A stretch of DNA of 14,982 bases, taken from Candidatus Wukongarchaeum yapensis (lineage in GTDB: Archaea > Asgardarchaeota > Wukongarchaeia > Wukongarchaeales > Wukongarchaeaceae). The first letter of the stretch is position 1, and each line of letters opens with the position of its first letter. The stretch spans positions 1 to 14,982 of the forward strand of contig JAEOSI010000030.1 in the NCBI GenBank assembly GCA_016840425.1, read 5' to 3'. The notes under the pieces were generated by a model. It was not told the origin of the DNA. It made no database searches and saw only the letters and a program-made list of their open reading frames with translations. The position numbers were made by a program, and so were the translations under genes. Of the stretch, positions 1-14,982 are shown one piece after another.

Positions 1-122
1 AAAAACCACCCAAAAACAAAAGCCTCACTACTATATACACTACTTTCGATATTTAAAGAGCAACAAGATCAAGTGTTTCGAACGCAGAAAAAGAAGAATC
101 TTCCCACAGGAAAAAAAAACTA

Positions 123-1424
123 TTAAACGTTCATACCAATTATCTCTTTCTCCAACCTCTCATGCTCCTTATCAGAAATTCCTAAAGACAACCTCAAATC
201 TTTTAACAATATCTTCCCTTTTTCGGATATTTTCCCACCCTCCAATGCTAACTGAAGCTGCTTCTTGTAAATCTCTAACGCGCTGATTAATTCTCTCTCC
301 AACCTCTCATGCTCCTTATCAGAAATTCCTAAAGATAACCTCAAATCTTTTAACAACCTACTCTCCTTTTCGGATATATCTCCACCACCCCATGCTAACT
401 GCAACTGCTTCCTGTAAATCTCTAACGCAGTCCCACTAGACAACCCAGTTTTACGCCTCCTACTGATAAAATCACGCGGAAATAACCTAGTCGTCAACCC
501 ACCTGCCATTTCCCTAACCGGGAAAAAAAGAATTAGCGTTAACAAAACAGCTGCAAAACGAGACAAGATAGACTCCTCACCCCCTGTAATAAAACGAACC
601 AGCACCTCTCCGCTCAAAATAAAAACCCAAACAAGAACTAAAACAGTCGTTATATAATAGAAACTTTTTGGCAAAATTAGATCGATATCGAACAACCTAT
701 GCTTCAAAATACCCACAGAAATTATAATCCCAGTTATCGATAAAGAGACTATACCCAGATCCAATTTTAAGTTAAAATCTGGGAATATCACCTCCAAGAG
801 ATCTTCCATAGTCGTGAAAATTAATGGAATTAAACTCGCAAGAATAAAATAAGCCGAACGCCGCCTTATCTCCTTATCTTCTAACCTGAACATCCTGAAG
901 AAGTTTACAGCAGCAAGAATTAACATTACTACTAAAAAAATGTCAAAGAAACCCCAAAGGAATGGGGGTGAAAATCTTTTGATATCCGCTTCAAAAAGGC
1001 CGAAAGGAGAACCATCCGATTCCCCCACACTAGGATATAGTTGGTCTATATCTATTGAAAAAACAGAGATGTAAAACAAAGGAACCACGTAAACTAAAAA
1101 CACTCGAAGATCCTCGAATATCTTTGTCCGATAAAGAAACACATACGAGAAATGAAATAATGTAGCGACTGCAAGAAGTGCCGTGGCTCTATTAAGAGCC
1201 ATCCAAAAGAGCCAAGTATCTGAATCCAAACTACACGTAGCCAACGCTACACTAAGGCATAGGATCGCCACGAAGAACTCCGCTATAATATATAATTGAA
1301 CCTGTTCATCTTTTCGCGCCTTAAAAAACAAAAGCCAAGCAATAATAAAATTGATTAAAAAGGCAATAAAATAGGGAATACTCCACGCATTAAAAAAATA
1401 ATCATCAAAAAGATCGGGAGCCAT
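123..1424 (-). CDS. Membrane protein: N-terminal histidine-kinase-type 7TM sensor region (HisKA_7TM-like), extra TM helices, two tandem TerB-like helical modules; no kinase domain
   Basis: About 9 hydrophobic segments. The end-of-7TM signature GILKHRLFDI is followed by the LFFPVREMAGGLTTRLF segment typical of such sensors. The C-terminus has two 49-aa repeats (ALEIYRKQLQLAWGGGDISEKESRLLKDLRLSLGISDKEHERLE). No H-box, HATPase or GGDEF motif. Family call from motif recall. Confidence 0.7.
   Translation of the reverse strand: MAPDLFDDYFFNAWSIPYFIAFLINFIIAWLLFFKARKDEQVQLYIIAEFFVAILCLSVALATCSLDSDTWLFWMALNRATALLAVATLFHFSYVFLYRTKIFEDLRVFLVYVVPLFYISVFSIDIDQLYPSVGESDGSPFGLFEADIKRFSPPFLWGFFDIFLVVMLILAAVNFFRMFRLEDKEIRRRSAYFILASLIPLIFTTMEDLLEVIFPDFNLKLDLGIVSLSITGIIISVGILKHRLFDIDLILPKSFYYITTVLVLVWVFILSGEVLVRFITGGEESILSRFAAVLLTLILFFPVREMAGGLTTRLFPRDFISRRRKTGLSSGTALEIYRKQLQLAWGGGDISEKESRLLKDLRLSLGISDKEHERLERELISALEIYKKQLQLALEGGKISEKGKILLKDLRLSLGISDKEHERLEKEIIGMNV
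143..428. repeat. In-frame 147-bp tandem duplication (2 copies) at the 3' end of the 7TM gene
   Basis: tccaacctctcatgctccttatcagaaattcctaaaga starts at 151 and again at 298. atctctaacgc occurs at 271 and 418. Period 147 nt = 49 codons. Confidence 0.95.
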
Positions 1425-1549
1425 TCACATCTCACACTCTCTATCAAGCGCTTTTATCCGAAACATCTACACAACCATAAATAAATTAAACTATCCAATC
1501 TTAAACCAAATAAAACCTATCAGAATACTAAGCTAGATTTCAAGTTTCT

Positions 1550-1687
1550 CTAAGTCTTTTCCACCTCTCTTTCTACTTCCCCAATAATCTCCTCCTCCTG
1601 CGACTGAATAATATACTTGCCCACTAAAACAGCGACAATAATAGTAGGATACAGTTGCCCAAAAATAGCGTTGTTATAAAAAAGCAT
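1550..1687 (-). pseudogene. Possible C-terminal remnant of a potassium-channel (Ion_trans_2) family gene
   Basis: Manual translation MLFYNNAIFGQLYPTIIVAVLVGKYIIQSQEEEIIGEVEREVEKT*. AIFGQLYPTIIVAVLVG resembles the last TM helix of prokaryotic channel proteins (EAIxGQLYxAIxIARLVG). No pore or selectivity filter is present. Confidence 0.35.
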
Positions 1688-1804
1688 TATAGTAGAAATG
1701 TAGCTTGTTAGCGTAAAAAAGGTTAAATGCTGCTTTACATTCGAATAAGAACCTATATTAATGAAAAGCTTATGTTAGCCCTAAATCAGCGGAGAGGTTA
1801 TGTC

Positions 1805-2683
1805 ATGAAAAAAAGTTATCCTTATCCTTCTGGCGAAGAGAAAGTTAAATGGGTCTCTACAGATTGGTTAGAGAAACATTTTGAAGATGAGAATATGATG
1901 GTATTAGATGTTCAACCTAACGTCCATGATTATATTCAAGAGCATATACCTGGTTCTGTTTACCTGAATGAAGGGTTGTTGCGTGTACCGTTAAAGGGTG
2001 TACCAACTTTTTATGTGCCTTCAGAGTCTATCCAGACAGTATTTCGCCGTGCGGGTCTTAAACCCGACGTGCCTGTTGTTGTTTATACTGGTATAGGATC
2101 TTACACAGGCTGGGGTAACGGGTTGGGACAGACAATGATGGCTTATTCTTTGGTACGCTTTGGACATGATAACGTCTACGTTCTTAATGGTGGTATTGAC
2201 AAATGGAAGAAAGAAGGTAGATCACTCAGTAAAATCTTTCCAAAGGTGGAAGAATCCAGTTTTACGGTTAATGTCCGCAAAGAATATTTTGTAGAATACG
2301 AAGAATTCAAAGCAATTAAGGATCATGAAGATGTAACCCTGTTGGATGCCCGTCCCTCTAATGTTTACGAGGGGCAAGGGCCTTGGATGAAGCCTGGCCA
2401 TATTCCTGGAGCCATCAACCTACCTTGGCCCAAACTGATGGACGACAAAAACAAGACCTTACTAAAACCTGATGAAGAGATCCGATCTATCCTCAAGGAA
2501 CATGGCATAACTTCCGACAAGACCATTCTCTGCTCTTGTGGTACCGGTCGCGAAGCTACCAACGAATTCATCCTTTTCAAATGGTATTTAAGCTACCCCA
2601 AAGTCAAAATTTATGAAGGATCATTTACTGAATGGACTTCTTATCCTGAAAACCCGACAGTAACCGGTAAAAATCCACGCTGA
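1805..2683 (+). CDS. Tandem-domain sulfurtransferase (rhodanese, TST/SseA family)
   Basis: Motifs WVSTDWL, DYIQEHIPGS, VYVLNGGIDKW, LLDARP, GHIPGA and YEGSFTEW; active-site loop CGTGREA. ATG at 1805 follows GGAGAGG and is preferred over the ORF-track start at 1727. Confidence 0.92.
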   Translation: MKKSYPYPSGEEKVKWVSTDWLEKHFEDENMMVLDVQPNVHDYIQEHIPGSVYLNEGLLRVPLKGVPTFYVPSESIQTVFRRAGLKPDVPVVVYTGIGSYTGWGNGLGQTMMAYSLVRFGHDNVYVLNGGIDKWKKEGRSLSKIFPKVEESSFTVNVRKEYFVEYEEFKAIKDHEDVTLLDARPSNVYEGQGPWMKPGHIPGAINLPWPKLMDDKNKTLLKPDEEIRSILKEHGITSDKTILCSCGTGREATNEFILFKWYLSYPKVKIYEGSFTEWTSYPENPTVTGKNPR

Positions 2684-2697
2684 AAGTTGAGATTAAA

Positions 2698-4068
2698 ATG
2701 CGATTAGAAATAATTAAATCAAAAGGACTTGCCCATAACAGCTACTTTCTTTCTGACGGAGAAGAAGCGCTAGTAGTAGATCCTCGTCGTGATTGCAGAG
2801 TTTACACTCAACTTGCAGATGATGAGTGCACAAAAATTAACTACATACTAGAGACTCACAGAAATGAAGATTATGTCATAGGCTCTCTCGAACTGCAGAA
2901 CATGACCGATGCTGAAATCGCTCACAGCAGAGAACTGCCTTTCAAGTATGGAGAGCATAGCCTTGATGACGGCGAGAACCTCAACATCGGAGGTTTAAAG
3001 ATCAAGACATTGTATACACCAGGGCATACTAATGACAGCATGTGCTACGTTGTTTATGAATCAGTGGGGATTAAAGACCCGCTAATAGTGTTCACAGGCG
3101 ATACTTTATTTGCGGGAGATGTAGGGCGCACCGACCTTTACGGGCGTGATATTCAGCAGGAGCAGTCTGAAAAGCTGTACGATAGCCTCCATGAGAAAGT
3201 CTTACAGCTTGGCGATCACGTCATAGCCTATCCAGCCCACGGCGCCGGCAGTATTTGCGGCAGCGAGATCAGCGACCGAGAATTTAGTACGATAGGCTAC
3301 GAACGAAAAACCAATCCCTTACTGCAACTGGACAAGGAACACTTCGCAAAACACATGCTAAAACAGAAGCTGACGGTACCTCCTTATTTCAATAAAATGG
3401 AAGAGTACAACCTAAACGGTCCACCTCTGCTAAACAAAACTCCTGCTAATCACCCTCTAAGCATTGCCGAGTTCGAAGAAGAAATGCAACAAACCCACAC
3501 AGCCATCGTTGACACACGAGAACCAGACGCATTTGCAGGTTCACACATACCGGACTCGCTTAACATTTGGCTAGACGGCCTCAGTTTCTTTCCCGGATGG
3601 GTATTAGCTTACGACCAGAGCATTCTGCTGGTCATGGAAAGGAAAGAGGATATAGAAACAGCGAAAGCCTACCTCTGGAGGCTCGGCTTCGACAATATCA
3701 TAGGCTACCTTTGTCCCGGCTTAAAGGAGTGGCGAAACGCCGGAAAACATATGGAGAATCTGGATACACTATCCTCAACAATGTTAAAAGCAAAGCTAGA
3801 CCGAAATGAAATCACCCTCGTGGATGTTCGAGAGCCCCACGAATGGGAGGAAGGATATATTGAAGGAGCCGAGAGAATTTACGTAGGACATCTAAAGGAA
3901 GAGGCAAATCGCTTACCTCACAACAAGCCTATAGCCACTCATTGCTCTTGGGGAGGCAGAGGTAGCTTGGGAGCCAGCATCTTGAAAAAGGCGGGATTCA
4001 AAGATGTCTACAACGTCCTCGGAGGCATAAAATCTTGGATAAAACAAGGATATCCAACCAAGAAATGA
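2698..4068 (+). CDS. MBL-fold metallo-hydrolase / persulfide-dioxygenase-like domain fused to two rhodanese domains (CstB-like architecture)
   Basis: Motifs VVDPRRD, ETHRNEDY (variant HxHxDH), TPGHT, FTGDTLFAGDVGRTDL, PAHGAGSICG, STIGYE. A Cys-less middle rhodanese (DTREPDAFAGSHIP) precedes a C-terminal rhodanese with CSWGGR. Starts 14 nt after the sulfurtransferase stop, so probably co-transcribed. Confidence 0.9.
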   Translation: MRLEIIKSKGLAHNSYFLSDGEEALVVDPRRDCRVYTQLADDECTKINYILETHRNEDYVIGSLELQNMTDAEIAHSRELPFKYGEHSLDDGENLNIGGLKIKTLYTPGHTNDSMCYVVYESVGIKDPLIVFTGDTLFAGDVGRTDLYGRDIQQEQSEKLYDSLHEKVLQLGDHVIAYPAHGAGSICGSEISDREFSTIGYERKTNPLLQLDKEHFAKHMLKQKLTVPPYFNKMEEYNLNGPPLLNKTPANHPLSIAEFEEEMQQTHTAIVDTREPDAFAGSHIPDSLNIWLDGLSFFPGWVLAYDQSILLVMERKEDIETAKAYLWRLGFDNIIGYLCPGLKEWRNAGKHMENLDTLSSTMLKAKLDRNEITLVDVREPHEWEEGYIEGAERIYVGHLKEEANRLPHNKPIATHCSWGGRGSLGASILKKAGFKDVYNVLGGIKSWIKQGYPTKK

Positions 4069-4416
4069 CAGGGCATCGATACTCCCTAGCACCTTACACC
4101 TTAAAACAGAACACCATTTTTGTGCCAAAATAAAGTTGAAAAAAAACCGTATAAAATCTTTTTTTGGGTGACAATAGACCTCGGAAAGCGATTTTTTTGC
4201 GTTTTTTAAGCGTCCCTAAATCTCAGGGTTGTGAATTCCCCTCCTTAAGAAACGGTAAAACAGTCTACAAAACGGACAAATAAAGTCACATATTTTTCTA
4301 TTCTTTTTTCGACATGCTTGCTAAATAATTAAGTAGTAAGATGAGCAAAAAGAAAAATGTGTTAAAAGTGCCTAAAAAGGGCGATTTTGCCCTATACATT
4401 CGCGAAAATGTTATTG

Positions 4417-4425
4417 AAAAAAAAA
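4417..4425 (-). terminator. Oligo-T terminator candidate downstream of histone A
   Basis: T9 run on the minus strand ~19 nt after the stop; an equivalent run follows histone B. Confidence 0.5.
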
Positions 4426-4443
4426 TCGCTTTTATATTAGGTT

Positions 4444-4617
4444 TTAAATGTCTTGTGCTTTGATTGTTTTTCTACCGTTTGCTTTTGTGCGTGTCATTGC
4501 GTCCGTAACTAGTTTTTCTACGGCTTTGTCAAGAGCTTTGATAGAGTCACTACCTACGAGGTGACCTTGTTTCTTAGCAAAGTCACGGTAAGCTTTTTGC
4601 ACAATATATTTGACCAT
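4444..4617 (-). CDS. Short (57 aa) alpha3-truncated histone-fold protein, copy A (face-to-face / bacterial-type histone-like)
   Basis: Manual translation MVKYIVQKAYRDFAKKQGHLVGSDSIKALDKAVEKLVTDAMTRTKANGRKTIKAQDI*. It shows the histone-fold L2 motif R-x-K-ANGRKTI-x-x-x-D, a long alpha2 (SDSIKALDKAVEKLVTDAMTR) and a basic composition. Upstream AGAGG RBS-like element, downstream T9. Below the ORF-track length cut-off. Confidence 0.88.
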   Translation of the reverse strand: MVKYIVQKAYRDFAKKQGHLVGSDSIKALDKAVEKLVTDAMTRTKANGRKTIKAQDI

Positions 4618-4712
4618 TTTATTTTCCTCTTATAATGCTTTTAATTTTTGTTTTGTCCGATAAGTATGGAACCTTTTTGTTTTGTTCCTAGGCTTCTTAT
4701 CGGCTTTTATAC

Positions 4713-4728
4713 TATTTAAGAATTTCCC
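4713..4728 (-). promoter_or_regulatory. BRE/TATA-like promoter of histone A
   Basis: Minus strand GGGAAATTCTTAAATA, conserved in the right arm as GGGAAATTTTTAAATA. Confidence 0.45.
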
Positions 4729-5323
4729 TTATTCGCGATATAAATTGAACAAAATGAAAAATGAAAATAGGAAAAAGTTAGGATGTTTTATGAAAAGAAC
4801 GATTTTTAAATATCATGATGTCGAATATCATTTTTTACTTAATAATTATGCATTGTTAGGAGGAGTGCTTTAACCTGAAAGTATTTAGAATAAAAAGAAG
4901 TAAATTGGATGAAAATATATCTTGAAATAATGGAATCTTCATATATGCAATTAATTGCTCTTGGGAAATAATGGCACGACGCAATTCTTTTTTTGTTTAA
5001 GTCTAATAACTAACGTGTTCTTATCGAACGATTCTTAAAAGCTATTAACCCCTGTTTTTAAGGGATTCTTCTAAGATACTTTGAAAACCTCTTAAAAGTT
5101 TCAGAGTTTTTGAATTCGCTGACCAAAAAAGAGGGTTCCTAACCGCTTAAGGTATCTGGAAACGGAAAACTGGAGATTCGATAAAGAAGGGGATGCTGAA
5201 GAACAAGAAGAAACTTTGAAAACTTAACAGCTTTTACAATAGGTTTATCAAGCAGAGGGGGGGTAAGTCTTGAAATTTGCTTCCGGGTCCAAGAGATGCT
5301 GAAGGGTTTTTAAAGTCAAGGGG

Positions 5324-5731
5324 TCAGGTTACTATTTCTGTTTTTATTTCTTCTATGTTTTTAAAGTCAGGGTCTCCTGAGTATAAAATTTTACAGCGGG
5401 ATAAGATTGCTGTTGCTAAGTGGATCATGTCTCCATAAGAAACAGGTTTTTGTTTACTATAATATTTGATTCTGAGGTTGGTGGCTATTATTGCTACTTC
5501 TTTTGTTACGGGCAATATTTTCAGGTTTTCAATTGCTTCTATGGTTCTCAGAACTTCTTCGCTTTTCTTTTTACCAAACTTTTGCTGTATCCTGTAGCTT
5601 ACTTCTGTCAGGACTATGGTGCTGATAACAGCTCCTTCCTCTAAAACTCTTTTTAAAATATCTTCTACCTTCCTCCAATGTTCATTTTCAGAAAAGTATT
5701 CTATCAAAATCCAGCTGTCTAGGTAGATCAT
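5324..5731 (-). CDS. vapC: PIN-domain toxin (VapC family), intact
   Basis: IYLDSWILIEY (D), VLTEV (E), SYGDMIHLATA (D), YSGDPDF (D). ATGA overlap with the upstream antitoxin; 135 aa. Confidence 0.92.
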   Translation of the reverse strand: MIYLDSWILIEYFSENEHWRKVEDILKRVLEEGAVISTIVLTEVSYRIQQKFGKKKSEEVLRTIEAIENLKILPVTKEVAIIATNLRIKYYSKQKPVSYGDMIHLATAILSRCKILYSGDPDFKNIEEIKTEIVT

Positions 5732-5973
5732 AGGTTATCCCAAGCTTTTTTTGACTCTCGGATCATTTGCTCTATTTCATCCTTATCAAACCTTACTTCT
5801 TGTCTAAGTTTTCTAAGCGTTTCTAAAGGGTTCTTGAGCACGGGCACGATCCTAATACCTTCCTCATCTACGAAAATCTCAAGCTTATCTCCTTTCTCCA
5901 AATTCAGCGTCTTTCTTATTCTTTTAGGTATGGTTATCTGCCCCTTACTTGTCAAAGTTATAGTTTCGCTCAC
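5728..5973 (-). CDS. AbrB/MazE/SpoVT-family antitoxin (VapB)
   Basis: TLTSKGQITIPKRIRKTLNLEKGDKLEI is the AbrB swapped-hairpin signature. GTG start preceded by AAGGTGA. Confidence 0.92.
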   Translation of the reverse strand: MSETITLTSKGQITIPKRIRKTLNLEKGDKLEIFVDEEGIRIVPVLKNPLETLRKLRQEVRFDKDEIEQMIRESKKAWDNL

Positions 5974-5983
5974 AAATAATCAC

Positions 5984-6027
5984 CTTACTAAAAACTAGAA
6001 GTAAGACTTCTTATATTTTTCCTTACC
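5984..6027 (-). promoter_or_regulatory. Putative autorepression operator and TATA element of the AbrB-VapC operon
   Basis: Inverted repeat CTTACT-N10-AGTAAG (5984-6005), a further CCTTAC half-site at 6021-6026, and AAAAATATAAG on the minus strand at 6010-6020. Confidence 0.5.
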
Positions 6028-6450
6028 AAATCCAAGATACCAGCATACACTCATAGCATAACAAACATGAAATCCGCAAAAAACACCCCCATAAAACAAA
6101 AAAACCCTCACTAACATATACCAAAACCCCATATTTAAGGAACAACAACTTCAGAAAAAAATAGAAAATGAAAAAAAACAGAGCAATGTACCGTTTTTTG
6201 AGAATTTCTAACAATCATAAACTTTTAATGGATCTAACTTCGTTTTATAATGTCGTAAATAGTGGTTTCACGACGATCTAATAAAAATAAATAAAACCCA
6301 AATAAGTAATAAAATAATGAAATTCTCAGAGAAATATTGGATGAATTTTAAAAGCGTCCGAATGTATCTGGGGTCCAGTCGTTAGGTTGGATTTGGGTGA
6401 AGTGTTAAGCATTGTAGCAAGATACACTTTGTTATCGGAAGTTGCGTAAT

Positions 6451-6782
6451 TCATTGCTGCAAAATTTCCACTATTTTCTCGATTATCTCATTGATCTTTT
6501 CAGCTTTGAGATGACCAACACAATATAAAACGATGTGGCGGTCTGCTGTAAATATTCGATTTGGTCTCACATTACTCTTTTGTTTAAGCGTTCCGGTTTC
6601 GAAGTCATTATCCTCGATTGGAACAGCATATTTATCTTTAATTTTTTGGCTTGTTATCTGGCAGAGGATTAGATCGTCTCTTCTAATTCAGCAATAACGA
6701 GAGCAGGACGTCTTTTGGCACGGGTTAAATCAGAAAATGGAAATGGTACAACCACCACATCTCCTTTTACAAATCTTGCCAA
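6451..6782 (-). pseudogene. PemK/MazF-family toxin with a 1-bp frameshift
   Basis: TTG start overlaps the antitoxin end and reads MARFVKGDVVVVPFPFSDLTRAKRRPALVIAELE, then a premature TAA at 6669-6671. Restoring one base near 6680 gives GDDLILCQITSQKIKDKYAVPIEDNDFETGTLKQKSNVRPNRIFTADRHIVLYCVGHLKAEKINEIIEKIVEILQQ* (TGA at 6451). The span is 332 nt = 333-1. Confidence 0.9.
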
Positions 6783-6961
6783 GCTTCCTCCTCCTCAGAT
6801 CTTAGCCAATCTTTCTTAAGAGAAGTTTCGCTTGCGATGGCTGTTCCCATCTTTTCTTTCAATGCTTTTGTTTCTAAAAAGCGGATGAAATCCAGTATTT
6901 CCCCGAGATACCGTTCAGGAACCTTCTCGATTTTCTTTAAGATTAATTCCTTAACGTCCAT
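6767..6961 (-). CDS. DUF2281-type antitoxin
   Basis: KVPERYLGEILDFIRFL ... ASETSLKKDWLRSEEEEAWQDL matches the pattern of DUF2281 proteins that overlap PemK-like toxins. Confidence 0.8.
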   Translation of the reverse strand: MDVKELILKKIEKVPERYLGEILDFIRFLETKALKEKMGTAIASETSLKKDWLRSEEEEAWQDL

Positions 6962-7018
6962 ATTTTCACGTTCCTATTTATTTTGCATGCCTAAGCATAA
7001 GCATTTTCTAACTATATT

Positions 7019-7096
7019 CTAGAATCTAGTATAGATCCTTTCTTTTTCAAGTATTTTAATAACTTTCTTTGGAGAAAGAGAAGGAAGTTTTGGCAT
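7019..7096 (-). pseudogene. hicA: HicA toxin N-terminal fragment (frameshifted and truncated)
   Basis: TAATG-coupled to the HicB stop. Reads MPKLPSLSPKKVIKILEK, then an extra A in the run at 7043-7047; the shifted frame reads KGSILDSRI*. The GSH catalytic motif and the C-terminal half are absent. Confidence 0.75.
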
Positions 7097-7326
7097 TATG
7101 AACCCCCTAAGACTAAAGTATATTCCGATGTTTTCTCATCCGTTGGAATTTCTTCTACATGTTCCTTTAAACTCTCTATATATAATTCAATAGCCTCTCT
7201 AGCCCGATCTATGGCTTCTTCTATAGTATCGCCATATGTAATACATCCTGGAAGAGAAGGGGCAATCACGGTATAACCGTCCTCAGGCTCTTTTCTAAGT
7301 AATACTCTATAACTCAGAGTTTGCAT
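7096..7326 (-). CDS. hicB: HicB-family antitoxin (short, UPF0150-type)
   Basis: YRVLLRKEPEDGYTVIAPSLPGCITYGDTIEEAIDRAREAIELYIESL is a classic HicB RNase-H-like fold pattern. ATG at 7326 chosen. Confidence 0.9.
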   Translation of the reverse strand: MQTLSYRVLLRKEPEDGYTVIAPSLPGCITYGDTIEEAIDRAREAIELYIESLKEHVEEIPTDEKTSEYTLVLGGS

Positions 7327-7665
7327 AACAATCAACCCTTTATTCTACTATAACTAAAAAATACTCACTTAAACAATTTCCATTAAATTTTTGGAAAACT
7401 AAAAGAAAAAGAAACTATTGGGACAATGAGCCACTATTTCACAACAAAAATAGAAATTATACCGTTATTTCAAGATATATTTTCATCCTACTTACTTCTT
7501 TTTATTCTAATATTTTGAGGTTAAAATGCTCCTCCCAATAATGCATAATTATTAAGTAAAAAAAGATATTCGACATTATGATATTTAAAATTCGTTCTTT
7601 TCACAAAATCCCCTAATTTTTTCCTATTTTCATTTTTCATTTTGTTACATTTATTTCGTGAATAA

Positions 7666-7681
7666 GGGAAATTTTTAAATA
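7666..7681 (+). promoter_or_regulatory. BRE/TATA-like promoter of histone B
   Basis: GGGAAATTTTTAAATA ~65 nt upstream of the ATG; AAGGAGA RBS at 7731-7737. Confidence 0.5.
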
Positions 7682-7744
7682 GTATAAAAGGCTGTAAAAA
7701 GCCCAGAAACAAAAAAATTAAAACTGTTATAAGGAGAATGTAAA

Positions 7745-7918
7745 ATGGTTATGTATATTGTGCAAAAAGCTTACCGTGACCTTGCTAAGAAATCAGCCCA
7801 TCTCGTAGGTAGTGACTCTATTAAAGCCCTTGATAAAGCCGTAGAAAAACTAATTCTTGATGCTATGAAGCGTACAAAAGCAAACGGTAGGAAAACAATT
7901 AAAGCCCAAGACATTTAA
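7745..7918 (+). CDS. Short (57 aa) alpha3-truncated histone-fold protein, copy B
   Basis: MVMYIVQKAYRDLAKKSAHLVGSDSIKALDKAVEKLILDAMKRTKANGRKTIKAQDI*. 50/57 identical to copy A, with 11 synonymous codon differences. AAGGAG RBS; T8 at 7937-7944. Confidence 0.88.
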   Translation: MVMYIVQKAYRDLAKKSAHLVGSDSIKALDKAVEKLILDAMKRTKANGRKTIKAQDI

Positions 7919-7936
7919 AACCTAATTTAAAAGTGG

Positions 7937-7944
7937 TTTTTTTT
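7937..7944 (+). terminator. Oligo-T terminator candidate downstream of histone B
   Basis: T8 run 18 nt after the stop, conserved in both arms. Confidence 0.5.
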
Positions 7945-8009
7945 CAATAACTTTTTTGTGTATGTATGGTGTAAATTCGCTTTTGTGGCGTTTTTAACAC
8001 TTTTTCTTT

Positions 8010-8123
8010 TTGCTCCCCCCTAACAAAAGAACCGAACAGTCCTAATGTCTTTATTTTATATTTTGCCTTTATTTCTTCTTTTACCTTTTCAAGTTTTTTT
8101 AAGATTTCATCCCTTGAAACCAT
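8010..8123 (-). pseudogene. Truncated minimal nucleotidyltransferase (MNT antitoxin)
   Basis: MVSRDEILKKLEKVKEEIKAKYKIKTLGLFGSFVRGEQ. The expected SDIDI catalytic aspartates are replaced by duplication-arm sequence (KEKVLKTPQ...). No HEPN partner is seen downstream. Confidence 0.85.
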
Positions 8124-8232
8124 GATATAGAAGTGATTTAATTCTTGTGTGGAAGGATACAAGAAAACATGAGAATTTTAAGAAGATAATCTCAGAATAT
8201 CGATTTAGAATATCTTCCAGTTGTTTTTCCAT
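8107..8232 (-). pseudogene. Small ORF with a strong RBS; possibly the N-terminus of a second MNT gene
   Basis: AAGGTGATAAGAT-ATG, then MEKQLEDILNRYSEIIFLKFSCFLVSFHTRIKSLLYHGFKG*. The first 17 aa resemble the lead-in of MNTs (LxxYPEIIFAYLFGS), but FGS is absent. Confidence 0.3.
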
Positions 8233-8420
8233 ATCTTATCACCTTTTTTTTTACTCAAGAGGTTACTGTATCAAAAAAACTTAATTATTTAAGAGGTGTT
8301 AATCCTCTTCTGGAACCTCTTTTATTTGTTGGATCAGTAGGTGTGCTATTTTACCTGGTTGGGTCAAAAGTTTTATATGTCTACTATAATCCCCCTTCTG
8401 GTTAAAGGAGATGTATTCCT

Positions 8421-9842
8421 ATGGATGTTGCTAAAATTCTTGCACGGATCGATGATCAGTTTGAGACCCATTTAATTAAGATTCAGGACTATTTACAAAT
8501 TAAATCGATTAGTGCGACTGGGGAAGGGATTGAGGAAACTGCAAAGGCAACGGCTAACGTCCTTAATGAGTTGGGTGCTACTGATGTTCATTTGGCGGAG
8601 ACTTCGGGTTATCCTGTTGTTTATGGTGAAATGATCACGGATCCGAGTAAAAAGACGCTCTTGTTTTATTCAATGTATGATGTGCAGCCAGTGGAGGCGG
8701 AGAAATGGGTTGTTGATCCTTTCGCAGGGGCTGTTGTTGAGGAGTTTGAAGATCTAGGTCGGTGCCTTGTTAGTCGGGGTGTTATAAACACGAAGGGTCC
8801 TATAATGGGTTTTTTTAATGCTTTGAAATCGATAATAGAAGTGGAAGGAGATCTTCCTTGTAATCTGATCTTTGCTATTGAAGGGGAGGAAGAGCTAGGA
8901 TCTCCTCATTTTCCGGAGTTTGTTGAAGAGTATGCTAAGAAATTGAAACGAGCTGATGGGGCTTATTTGCCTTTTTTTGCGGAAAATAAGGTGGGGAAAG
9001 TGAAGATGTGGCTGGGAGCTAAGGGTATCATCTATCTGAAGTTGCGTGTGCGTGGTGGAGATTGGGGGGGACCAAGAACACGCCATATCCATTCCTCCTA
9101 CCACTCTTGGGTGGATTCGCCCGTGTGGAAGCTAGTCCATTGTCTCGCGGACATGAAAGCCCCCGACGGGACTATAAAGATCCCTGACTTCTATAGGGAT
9201 TTGATACCCCCGTCTGCAGAGGATGAAGAGCTGCTAACCAAGTTAACGGAAACCATGGATTTTGAAGAGATAAAGAACTCTCTAGACATTAGCAGATTTC
9301 GCGGGGAACTACCGGAAGGAAAAGACCTCCTCCAACAACATCTCTTCTCAACCACGTTAAACATTGATGGATTGGACGCCGGATATACTGGACCAGGTAC
9401 CAAAACGATTCTTCCGTGTGAGGCGAGAGCTTATTTGGATATCCGCCTTATTCCGAATCAGGAACCAGAGAGGCAAATTGGTCTATTGAAAGAATTTCTC
9501 AAGAAAAACCATCCTCTGGTCGAAATAGAGTCATATGATGCGTATCCTTGGGCGAAGGTAAGCGTTCGGGAACCCTTGTGCCAAGCCCTGCTCCGGACAT
9601 ATCAAGCGTTTGGAAAAAAGGTAGAGATCTGGCCCCATCACTCGGGATCGGCGCCCTTTTACTTATTCAGCCGCAATTTGGGCATGCCTTTTATCTGGGG
9701 CGGGCTAGGTCATGGGAATCGAATGCACTCTCCAAACGAATATGCAGTTGTGGCTGGAGACAACAAAGTAGGTGGAATAAGAGAGTTTGAGAAGTCTATT
9801 GTAACATTTTTGTATGAATTCAGTCAAGAGAAGATGCATTAG
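8421..9842 (+). CDS. M20/M25/M40-family metallo-hydrolase (ArgE/DapE/dipeptidase-like)
   Basis: Motifs GYPVVYGE, YSMYDVQP, DPFAG, RGVINTKGP, EGEEELGSP, KTILP, IRLIPNQ, HSPNEY. AAGGAG RBS. Confidence 0.9.
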   Translation: MDVAKILARIDDQFETHLIKIQDYLQIKSISATGEGIEETAKATANVLNELGATDVHLAETSGYPVVYGEMITDPSKKTLLFYSMYDVQPVEAEKWVVDPFAGAVVEEFEDLGRCLVSRGVINTKGPIMGFFNALKSIIEVEGDLPCNLIFAIEGEEELGSPHFPEFVEEYAKKLKRADGAYLPFFAENKVGKVKMWLGAKGIIYLKLRVRGGDWGGPRTRHIHSSYHSWVDSPVWKLVHCLADMKAPDGTIKIPDFYRDLIPPSAEDEELLTKLTETMDFEEIKNSLDISRFRGELPEGKDLLQQHLFSTTLNIDGLDAGYTGPGTKTILPCEARAYLDIRLIPNQEPERQIGLLKEFLKKNHPLVEIESYDAYPWAKVSVREPLCQALLRTYQAFGKKVEIWPHHSGSAPFYLFSRNLGMPFIWGGLGHGNRMHSPNEYAVVAGDNKVGGIREFEKSIVTFLYEFSQEKMH

Positions 9843-10296
9843 TAGTTATGTTGTGCTAAAACTTTACGAATCCTCTCTAAAAGGAAAACATTCGTATAAT
9901 AAATGCACCTAAGAGCACATAATCTCTTCTTTATAGTGGTCTCATTATTAATAAAAAAAGGGGAGAGTTTGGATAAGTGGTATGGGATACTATGAAAACT
10001 GAAATCCCAGCCTTACAGACTTTTATTCCATAAAATGCTTGAAGAGTTAAACGATGAATGAATATTTTCAAAAGAAAATTTTAAAATATAAAAATATAAA
10101 AATATGCCAGATCACTGGTGAGAATGAAAAAGACAGAAGGAACCACTCTTACCATGGAGCAGGATCAGGAGTTGTTTTAATCGCCATCGTTCCAGCCGAT
10201 GTAAAGCGAGGTTTGGTCTTTTTCGACATAAAAATGACTTTGAGGGCATAAAAGAGCTCCTACAAGTTTAAAGTCAAGTTTAAGTGGTTGATTTTG

Positions 10297-13587: not shown

Positions 13588-13869
13588 TTATCTAATCAAC
13601 TCTTCAACTTCTTTTTTACCTTCTTCTAATTCTTTTTCTTGTTCTTTGTCTATTTCTAATAATAAGGTTTGGAATTCTCCGACATGGACCTTTTCTTCTC
13701 TCGCTACCTCCAGAAGAATTTTCCTAATATTCTCGTTTTCAGTCATATTTGCCATTTGTTCATAGAGGTTTATAGCATCTAATTCGGCTATTATAGACAC
13801 CCTTAGTATTTCTTTATCTAAATCTTCTTTCTTTATTTTCTCAAGCAGTATGGGTATTTTTGACAACAT
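13588..13869 (-). CDS. Ferritin-like protein of the encapsulin-cargo (EncFtn/Flp) type
   Basis: EILRVSIIAELDAINLYEQMA ... ILLEVAREEKVHVGEF resembles the Thermococcales Flp ferroxidase motifs. ATG at 13869 with GGAGG at 13881-13885. Confidence 0.85.
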   Translation of the reverse strand: MLSKIPILLEKIKKEDLDKEILRVSIIAELDAINLYEQMANMTENENIRKILLEVAREEKVHVGEFQTLLLEIDKEQEKELEEGKKEVEELIR

Positions 13870-14982
13870 ATTTTTCAAATCCTCCATTAGATTTCAAATT
13901 AGAACTGTGAACTACTCCCAGCTTTTGCAGGGAGCTTCCTGTTTCAACGACTGAACTTGCCGATATCTCTCTCGGTAGAGGTTCTGTCTCCGCAGGCGTG
14001 AATTCGGGCAGTCCCTGCCCTAACAGTTTTTCTAAACCTCTTTTGAGGACTACAAAGGCGGAGTTGTAGTCTCTATCAATTTCCAACCCGCAAAAAGGAC
14101 ATTTATGAGTTCTTACAGCCAAGCTTTTCTTTACTTCTTTACCGCATCTATAACATTCTTTTGTTGTTCCCCTCGGATCCACTTCTACAACCGTCTTACC
14201 GGCTCTTTCAGCCTTGTAAGACAGAAATTGTTTGAACAGGTTCCAAGAGGAGTCCATTATGTTTCGAGCGTTATAACTTATCCTTATCAAACTGTTCACG
14301 TTTAGTTTCTCTACAGCTACGAAATCATAGTTTTGGACATAAAACCTTGATAGTTTGTGGAGGAAGTCATCCCTTTGATTTTTGATCCTTTCATAGATTC
14401 TAGCAACTTTTACCTTCTGCTTCTCATAGTTTTTTGATCCTTTCCTTTTCCTGGATAGTTTCCGGTGTTTTCTCCTCAAACTTTTCAAGGATTTGTTCAG
14501 ATAAAGGGGAGGTTCTACCTGTCTACCCTCCGTGTCGGTAACGTAGTGGATTATGCCCATGTCGATTCCCACTACCTTTTCCACCTTTTTCTTATCGGGA
14601 ACGGTTTGTTCGCAACAAACAAAGGCATGCCATCTACCAGAACTATGCCTCTTTACGGTTACCTGTTTTATCTTCTTCTTTTCCTTCCCTTTCCCTTCCT
14701 TTACTTTTCTATGCATCCTAATCTTTATATCCCCGATCTTGGATAGGTGTAGGAGGTCGTATCTTTTACCAGTTTCTATTATTTTGAACCCGCTCTGGTT
14801 ATACGTGAAAGTTTTGAACCATCCCTTACCTTTAAACCTGAGTTTTCCCACTTTCTTACCGTTCTTTTTCAGCCCTGCCAAGCTTCTAAGGTTTGAAAAC
14901 AGTCTGCATGATTCATATTGTAAAACTTTAGAATAAACCTCTTTCAGTTCCGGATGTTTTTCTTTTAACTCTGGGAGGGAGT
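13841..14982 (-). CDS. tnpB: RNA-guided endonuclease TnpB (IS200/IS605), 5'-partial
   Basis: RuvC-I VVGIDMG, RuvC-II VAVEKL, Zn finger CYRCG...CPFCG, RuvC-III DRDYNSA. The frame stays open upstream of 14881 to the window edge (SLPELKEKHPELKEVYSKVLQ...). Confidence 0.95.
   Translation of the reverse strand, partial: SLPELKEKHPELKEVYSKVLQYESCRLFSNLRSLAGLKKNGKKVGKLRFKGKGWFKTFTYNQSGFKIIETGKRYDLLHLSKIGDIKIRMHRKVKEGKGKEKKKIKQVTVKRHSSGRWHAFVCCEQTVPDKKKVEKVVGIDMGIIHYVTDTEGRQVEPPLYLNKSLKSLRRKHRKLSRKRKGSKNYEKQKVKVARIYERIKNQRDDFLHKLSRFYVQNYDFVAVEKLNVNSLIRISYNARNIMDSSWNLFKQFLSYKAERAGKTVVEVDPRGTTKECYRCGKEVKKSLAVRTHKCPFCGLEIDRDYNSAFVVLKRGLEKLLGQGLPEFTPAETEPLPREISASSVVETGSSLQKLGVVHSSNLKSNGGFEKYVVKNTHTA
13887..14030 (-). 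ncRNA. Predicted omegaRNA (reRNA) scaffold plus flanking guide
   Basis: Hairpins GGGCAG-GGA-CTGCCC (14006-14020) and CTCCCTGC-AAAA-GCTGGGAG. By established TnpB biology the guide would be the flank AGTTCTAATTTGAAATCTAA. The 5' boundary is approximate. Confidence 0.6.
13907..14982 (-). mobile_element. IS200/IS605-family element (right end at ~13907; left end outside the window)
   Basis: The minus strand ends GAAGCTCCCTGCAAAAGCTGGGAGTAGTTCAC: a subterminal hairpin plus the TTCAC terminus typical of this family. tnpA presence cannot be judged. Confidence 0.85.

Follow-up and report, generated by a model that had tools for sequence, protein, structure and literature searches.

A pair of face-to-face histone paralogs around toxin-antitoxin genes at a variable locus of the Asgard archaeon Candidatus Wukongarchaeum yapensis

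Face-to-face (FtF) histones were recognized only in 2024 and are now viewed as a second major archaeal chromatin system. For questions on the origin of eukaryotes, the chromatin of Asgard archaea is of particular interest. FtF histones are defined by a toroidal tetramer (Schwab et al., PMC11390915), and the signature of the H. volcanii protein D4GZE0 comprises R41, N45, R47, T49, and D54, the chain ending one residue past the aspartate (PMC11390915). In HTkC of Thermococcus kodakarensis, the tetramer is reduced to a dimer when R45 is mutated (10.64898/2025.12.06.692711). The FtF histones characterized so far, namely HTkC, HLp, and the homologues from H. volcanii and Leptospira, all organize chromatin and are highly expressed (PMC11390915; 10.64898/2025.12.06.692711), and FtF histones have already been published for Asgard archaea (PMC11390915; 10.64898/2025.12.06.692711; 10.64898/2026.07.02.735847).

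Two short genes were investigated here, designated paralogs A and B, on a 14,982-nucleotide (nt) stretch of DNA from Candidatus Wukongarchaeum yapensis (contig JAEOSI010000030.1, assembly GCA_016840425.1), the whole of which is termed the window. The source genome is a metagenome-assembled genome (MAG) of 2.16 Mb in 277 contigs and is 92% complete. Profile searches, fold, signature residues, and a predicted tetramer together give good support to A and B being FtF histones with a truncated α3 helix, and they add two members to a known family, which has already been reported from this lineage. It is probable, in our judgment, that both are functional FtF paralogs and that their co-location with toxin-antitoxin (TA) genes reflects gathering in a flexible locus and not a functional unit. 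The mildly new aspects are a five-copy expansion beside nucleosomal histones, in the form of a portable unit with a conserved upstream element, together with gene conversion among the copies and a recurrent but local co-location with TA genes.

A preceding sequence-only reading had described two intact, divergently oriented open reading frames (ORFs) of 57 amino acids (aa) bracketing a TA island, each with a ribosome binding site (RBS), a TATA-like element, and an oligo-T tail. Both ORFs were found where it had placed them, ORF positions and Pfam matches agreed with the divergent arrangement around TA genes, and all of the signals could be located:

4444-4617, minus strand: FtF (α3-truncated) histone paralog A, 57 aa (ORF, PDB profile, AF2/Foldseek, four-copy model, signature residues).
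4706-4720, minus strand: TATA-like box of copy A, TTAAATAGTATAAAA (read from the sequence, alignment).
4417-4425, minus strand: T9 run 18 nt past the stop codon of A, an archaeal oligo-T terminator signal (sequence).
7745-7918, plus strand: FtF histone paralog B, 57 aa, 88% identical to A (ORF, profiles, paralog comparison).
7673-7689, plus strand: TATA-like box of copy B, TTTTAAATAGTATAAAA (read from the sequence, alignment).
7937-7944, plus strand: T8 run past the stop codon of B (sequence).

The purine-rich RBS lies 8-9 nt 5' of the ATG (GAGG at 4626-4629 for A, at 8 nt; AGGAG at 7732-7736 for B), and alignment showed the TATA-like core TTTAAATA to be near-invariant across all paralogs. The two coding sequences (CDSs) differ at 24 nucleotides, and our codon comparison arrived at the same 7 residue-changing codons (of 57) and 11 synonymous-only codons as counted before. 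By the Nei-Gojobori method, synonymous divergence (dS) between A and B was 0.545 and non-synonymous divergence (dN) 0.076 (dN/dS 0.14), with differences concentrated at synonymous over non-synonymous sites (Fisher p = 2e-5). Given this enrichment and the low ratio, the earlier proposal that purifying selection maintains both copies is supported; over all paralog pairs, dN/dS ranged from 0.12 to 0.49. The description of the genes as unannotated was correct for function, as no Pfam family is assigned to them, but not for gene calls, since the gene callers behind public protein catalogues predict both ORFs. Paralog B is exactly the catalogue protein P0003, which occurs on six contigs.

Scores of A and B against PF00808 were 20.7 and 18.8 bits (cut-off 21.4), those against DUF1931 (PF09123) 13.9 and 16.6 bits (gathering cut-off 21.8; profile positions 23-53 of 138 only), and those against NF043032 22-26 bits (cut-off 50). 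As all of these remained below threshold, both genes were left unnamed by annotation pipelines. A search of the PDB with a query profile built from 17 close homologues matched HBb/Bd0055 of Bdellovibrio (8fvx, 8cmp; E about 9e-7), HLp of Leptospira (9qt0; E = 9.5e-7), and HTkC of Thermococcus (9f2c; E = 6.5e-4), the match to nucleosomal HMfA being much weaker (E = 0.01). An AlphaFold2 (AF2) model was obtained from an 80-sequence alignment of relatives gathered by exhaustive profile search. It reached a pLDDT (predicted local distance difference test) of 94.5 and places α1 at residues 7-16, α2 at 23-46 (24 residues), and α3 at 54-56 (3 residues), in agreement with the FtF class, in which α3 is reduced to 3-4 residues and α2 falls short of its nucleosomal length. 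In Foldseek, the top nine PDB matches to this model were HLp, HBb, and HTkC (template modeling (TM) score 0.86-0.92, root-mean-square deviation (rmsd) 0.8-1.1 Å), and among the matches listed, ranks 10-50 were histones or histone-fold proteins throughout.

The FtF signature is complete in both proteins: R43, N47, R49, T51, and D56 have the same spacing as the five D4GZE0 residues given above, and the chain ends with I57, one past D56. The RxTxxxxD motif of the L2/α3 region reads R49-K50-T51-I-K-A-Q-D56 in A and B alike, and R43 falls on R45 of HTkC by the offset of the PDB alignment (+2). Among the 80 relatives, D56 is the sole invariant column, with R43, N47, R49, and T51 close to invariant; all five paralogs of the genome carry R43 and N47 and vary chiefly at exposed positions of α1 and α2. 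The nucleosomal HMf class, with an α3 of about 10 residues and scores above curated cut-offs, could be excluded because α3 is short here and the scores of A and B are lower. The bacterial dimer class of HBb lacks the Arg and Asn tetramer residues and is exclusive to bacteria; it was excluded because R43 and N47 are present, and the host of A and B is archaeal. The earlier assignment to the short face-to-face type, as opposed to nucleosomal HMf, is therefore upheld by profile, fold, signature residues, and predicted tetramer. The profile and structure checks suggested with it divide, with DUF1931 and PF00808 staying below cut-off and the histone fold being recovered by AF2/Foldseek and by the PDB profile matches.

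A complex model of four copies scored 0.91, with the best of 3 controls at 0.00; among proteins of solved structure, 20 of the 30 that are pairs of one chain and 1 of the 23 that are single chains attained the mark. The runs agreed in at least 98% of contacts, with a partner pLDDT of 94. In this model, one chain forms a handshake dimer with another and contacts a third through its positions 42-43, 46-47, and 53-56, which correspond to the FtF dimer-dimer interface. The modeled contacts cover one copy, so that closure of the ring is read from the first interface only. As solved FtF tetramers exist, the pass shows likeness and may be a memory of HTkC and HLp; a closed toroidal tetramer is accordingly to be taken for A and B as a prediction of the model.

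By analogy with HTkC and HLp, the chains would pair as histone-fold handshake dimers. Two dimers would then join into a toroidal tetramer in which R43 reaches the C-terminal carboxylate of the opposite dimer, with N47 and R49 placed on the front of the interface between the dimers. DNA would be contacted through the R49-K50-T51 loop and the lysines of α1, and would be wrapped and compacted. The ORFs and the selection on them, the fold, the signature residues, the number of paralogs, the repeat structure, and the gene neighborhoods were shown in this analysis, whereas tetramer formation, DNA wrapping, expression, and the absence of functional coupling to the TA genes are the parts of the preferred reading that we infer. 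With respect to expression, a search of public libraries listed no RNA datasets containing the 4.35-kb stretch. In one metatranscriptome (X22), 6% of the sampled words were present, and a single contig of 267 nt from a relative matched 4582-4848 at about 89% identity; this was not counted as evidence of transcription because such libraries can contain DNA.

The same genome carries two tandem nucleosomal-type histone genes (contig C17:4742-5182; PF00808, 50-52 bits), alongside which the FtF histones may act. It also encodes actin (444 bits against the Pfam Actin profile) and further actin-family genes, in keeping with its placement in the Asgard phylum. Matches to the α3-truncated histone profile were found in 191 of 251 genomes sampled from the phylum; copy number is five in this genome and, among the genomes listed, at most four elsewhere, mostly one or two. 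The exhaustive search also returned many proteins of 97-130 aa that consist of two fused α3-truncated folds (P0014, P0016, P0017, P0018, and P0021), as well as a 260-aa protein (P0013) with two such folds after a long N-terminal extension. One further 57-aa ORF (L064:5762-5935) was excluded from the family, as it gave no alignment with the histones.

Paralogs A and B lie within the two arms of an inverted repeat of about 590 nt, of which the histone CDS makes up 174 nt in each arm and whose identity is 81-92% by segment:

4348-4936, no strand: left arm, comprising 3' flank, gene A, leader, promoter, and about 220 nt of far-upstream DNA (inverted repeats I1-I5, own-genome DNA search, alignments).
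7459-8011, no strand: right arm, with a leader 33 nt shorter (deletion) relative to A (repeat search, alignments).

Five copies with common flanks occur in the genome, namely A, B, and one each on contigs C243, C197, and C147. Three copies stand on one contig in another assembly, and the C197 and C243 types occur together in further assemblies; the five were therefore taken to be real paralogs and not strain mixtures. The C197-type copy lies between an isocitrate/isopropylmalate dehydrogenase gene and TiaS; the sister species and other assemblies have it at this position too, for which reason it is probably the ancestral core copy. At synonymous sites, A and B are not the closest relatives of one another, dS being 0.24 between A and the C243 copy and 0.55 between A and B. 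Sliding comparison revealed that copy A is pieced together: the far-upstream DNA and the 3' flank resemble those of B (87-93%), the leader resembles that of C243, and within the CDS one 50-nt stretch is 98% identical to the C197 copy and another 94-96% identical to a third copy in a sister strain. That third copy (P0002, GCA_030587675.2; L046:1173-1346) itself encodes an A/C147 mosaic protein. From these mosaics, gene conversion among the paralogs was concluded to be ongoing. The unit of about 590 nt is self-contained, with far-upstream region, TATA box, leader with RBS, CDS, and oligo-T run; it has been copied to at least five sites in the genome, its copies exchanging patches through gene conversion.

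Between and beside the arms, the following genes of TA type were identified:

5324-5731, minus strand: VapC toxin (PIN domain), intact (PF01850, E = 8.5e-20).
5728-5973, minus strand: VapB-type antitoxin (AbrB/MazE fold), overlapping vapC by 4 nt (PF04014, E = 6.5e-15).
6451-6794, minus strand: MazF/PemK toxin pseudogene in two frames (PF02452 positions 2-28 in 6669-6794 and 37-109 in 6451-6687).
6767-6961, minus strand: DUF2281 antitoxin-like gene upstream of the MazF pseudogene (PF10047, E = 1.8e-7).
7019-7095, minus strand: possible HicA remnant of 25 codons, MPKLPSLSPKKVIKILEKE... (translation, judged by eye only; no Pfam match, unconfirmed).
7096-7335, minus strand: HicB-like antitoxin, short form (PF15919, E = 7.6e-14).
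7944-8162, minus strand: N-terminal fragment of an MNT-type nucleotidyltransferase (antitoxin) (PF01909, residues 24-53 only).

The MNT gene is cut past its GSFVRGEQ motif at the end of the right arm (about 8011), outside the arm. A related species has an intact MazF of 109 aa (L063:603-932; 93% DNA identity), and DUF2281 is intact in both. Across 4100-8400, GC content is 0.26-0.38, whereas the flanking genes have 0.41-0.49. No integrase, transposase, or relaxase ORF was found within 4069-8420, and no flanking direct repeats, att-like ends, or tRNA target in or at the island, so that a mobility gene, defined ends, and tRNA insertion, by which a mobile element or genomic island is recognized, are all lacking. 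The sole transposon-type gene of the window is a TnpB-like gene (IS200/IS605 type; 13841-14980, minus strand), which lies 6 kb from the island and runs off the window end. Within it, a stretch of about 35 nt (13907-13940) recurs on many sister-genome contigs like a transposon end, and a 99-aa rubrerythrin/encapsulated-ferritin-like gene (13588-13887, minus strand) overlaps the 3' end of the TnpB-like ORF by about 47 nt.

The arrangement was recovered on five contigs from different samples (ENA, NCBI, and JGI) at 99.4-99.9% identity, and the stretch was found in marine sediment, marsh, and mangrove metagenomes of several studies. The locus is a variable region flanked by a rhodanese/MBL gene on one side and an M20 peptidase gene on the other. 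Its counterpart in a related species, where the M20 peptidase is 87% identical, carries two histone copies arranged in tandem and in direct orientation, together with an intact MazF-DUF2281 pair (93% identical to that of the window), an HEPN-NTase pair, and an EVE-domain gene. In a sister strain, a third histone copy lies 3.3 kb to the left and has a HepT gene next to it. In a sister-genus MAG (G001), no DNA match was found for 1-10100 of the window except the histone unit. One population variant (JGI 3300028897, L049) lacks 1.15 kb (3244-4398), a segment made up of the MBL-rhodanese gene's 3' part and the flanking DNA 3' of histone A. Further to the left, a HisKA_7TM membrane protein without a kinase domain (123-1424, minus strand) is internally duplicated at its C-terminal end; contig C147 (L005:1-996) carries a paralog or strain variant of it, which adjoins the histone copy there, a place at which the sister strain has HepT.

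It had been proposed that the histones and the TA genes form an accessory chromatin module, that is, extra histones tied to a TA island, which either silence acquired AT-rich DNA or are the cargo of a decayed mobile element kept by TA addiction. The low GC content of the island is consistent with this, as are a locus content that varies by species with histone and TA genes present in both, the third copy of the sister strain adjoining a HepT toxin gene, and the extra FtF histones borne by haloarchaeal plasmids (PMC11390915). The shared, AT-rich, and variable nature of the locus stood up, but the mobile remnant did not gain a mobility gene: integrase, transposase, tRNA target, and direct-repeat ends are all missing in or at the island. 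The expected TA linkage of homologues failed, as none of 30 immediate neighbors of homologues in 16 other Asgard genomes carried a TA domain by Pfam, and the other three of the five paralogs lie in housekeeping contexts, beside Iso_dh/TiaS, GNAT/Metallophos, or Mrp genes. The Pfam-matched neighbors of the homologues were likewise mostly housekeeping genes (epimerase, SurE, ETF, aminotransferase, THUMP, NIF3, GHMP kinase, POR, and SfsA). Furthermore, TA neighbors were not seen at the two haloarchaeal plasmid FtF copies inspected, and no close relatives of the histones were found in IMG/VR viral contigs or in phage records. With a frameshift in MazF, a probable decay of HicA, and a truncated MNT antitoxin gene, little addiction would be left except that of VapBC. 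An accessory module of this kind is therefore unlikely, although it was given the highest probability among the alternatives, and the co-location looks like a feature of one variable locus and not a new type of cassette. Under the preferred reading, A and B are an inverted pair in a variable region that gains and loses TA modules, and two kinds of small, readily duplicated genes would have accumulated in one flexible locus.

Several points weigh against this preferred reading. TA genes and multiple histone copies share the locus in two species, which fits chance accumulation less well than one case would. As many neighbors of the relatives have no Pfam match at all, unrecognized TA genes among them are possible. 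Tetramer formation and DNA binding by A and B are predictions. In addition, the 220 nt far upstream are better conserved between A and B than third codon positions are.

This non-coding element of about 220 nt lies 5' of the TATA box (within 4618-4936 and 7459-7744; alignment columns 88-312) and is common to four of the five paralogs and to copies in related species. Its identity between A and B is 88%, compared with 74% at third codon positions (p = 0.013), the margin being small over the whole set (76% vs 71%). It is most likely cis-regulatory DNA, and a DNA search of the host genome gave no occurrence of it without a histone gene. An Rfam scan of 3900-8500 at E <= 1 found no RNA family, and a structured RNA was rejected, as RNAalifold returned no consensus structure for 10 distinct copies on either strand; single-sequence RNA z-scores of the element were -0.2 to +2.0. 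The antisense ORFs of 63 aa (4682-4873 and 7521-7712) and a nested ORF of 27 codons were also rejected as genes because they lack conservation: the antisense ORFs are frameshifted in the C243 and L056 copies, and of the 9 changes between A and B in the nested ORF, 7 are non-synonymous.

Some archaeal histones that make up less than 0.1% of protein have been proposed as specific regulators. A and B could in the same way be low-abundance DNA-binding paralogs, possibly autoregulating through the conserved upstream DNA. The element that accompanies the copies, its conservation above that of third codon positions in A and B, the restriction of paralog differences chiefly to exposed α1 and α2 positions, and the nucleosomal histones already present in the genome would all suit such a role. 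However, the tetramer and DNA-loop residues are all retained, and the characterized FtF histones are all highly expressed chromatin organizers (PMC11390915; 10.64898/2025.12.06.692711), which makes specific regulation improbable. A slightly smaller chance was given to the possibility that the FtF gene and its element of about 220 nt form a self-propagating unit that seeds variable loci, with A, B, and the third copy forming mixed tetramers and an island-specific chromatin over acquired TA and defense DNA. If this were true, it would represent an archaeal counterpart of H-NS-like xenogeneic silencers.

Lastly, an invertible segment, in which the inverted repeats of about 590 nt flip the inner 2.5 kb as a switch, is very improbable: the long flanking repeats and the homologous recombination on these units shown by paralog gene conversion would allow it, but the five independent contigs reaching across both arms all agree in orientation, the sole 'opposite strands' joint among public contigs (4636/7689) comes from a contig that shows 19 mismatches over 127 nt and therefore most likely represents another paralog, and, as the histone promoters lie within the arms and the inner genes bring their own upstream DNA, inversion would alter no obvious link between promoter and gene.

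With functional FtF paralogs in a flexible locus as the preferred reading, A and B can be set against the described members of the family. An archaeal counterpart is HTkC (PDB 9F2C), which is alike in length (about 57-59 aa), in its truncated α3, and in the ending R-x3-N-x-R-x-T-x4-D, with R43 corresponding to the tetramer-making R45. The folds superimpose with a TM score of 0.86-0.88, and both proteins coexist with nucleosomal histones. HTkC differs in sequence (about 30% identity) and in host (Thermococcales, as opposed to Asgard archaea here), and is the one FtF histone described for T. kodakarensis (10.64898/2025.12.06.692711), compared with five paralogs in this genome. A and B also carry RKT, with a lysine after R49 that is not strongly conserved in the FtF profile.

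HLp of Leptospira perolatii (PDB 9QT0-2) gave the best structural match (TM score 0.87-0.89, rmsd 1.0 Å), but is bacterial, has an N-terminal tail, and shares 28% identity. Its tetramer wraps DNA. The best sequence score was obtained for HBb/Bd0055 of Bdellovibrio bacteriovorus (E = 8e-7; 33% identity), which shares the α3-truncated fold and the RKT. HBb is without the R and N tetramer residues and is a dimer that bends DNA (PMC11390915), whereas A and B retain both residues and are modeled as a closed tetramer. FtF copies on haloarchaeal plasmids (e.g., pHV4) belong to the same family and are also accessory, outside the core chromosome (PMC11390915); they differ in identity (38-42%) and in being located on replicons, not in a chromosomal inverted duplication.

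The upstream element and the gene conversion described here provide handles on regulation and concerted evolution, and the presence of five FtF and two nucleosomal genes in one genome offers a natural case for questions of heterotetramers and division of labor. In this last respect the genome differs from its nearest described parallels, the Heimdallarchaeia 'KowaHeim1' and Heimdall LC2, which are also Asgard archaea with abundant α3-truncated histones (10.64898/2026.07.02.735847; 10.64898/2025.12.06.692711): their genomes are without nucleosomal histones, whereas the one analyzed here has two, together with its five α3-truncated copies.

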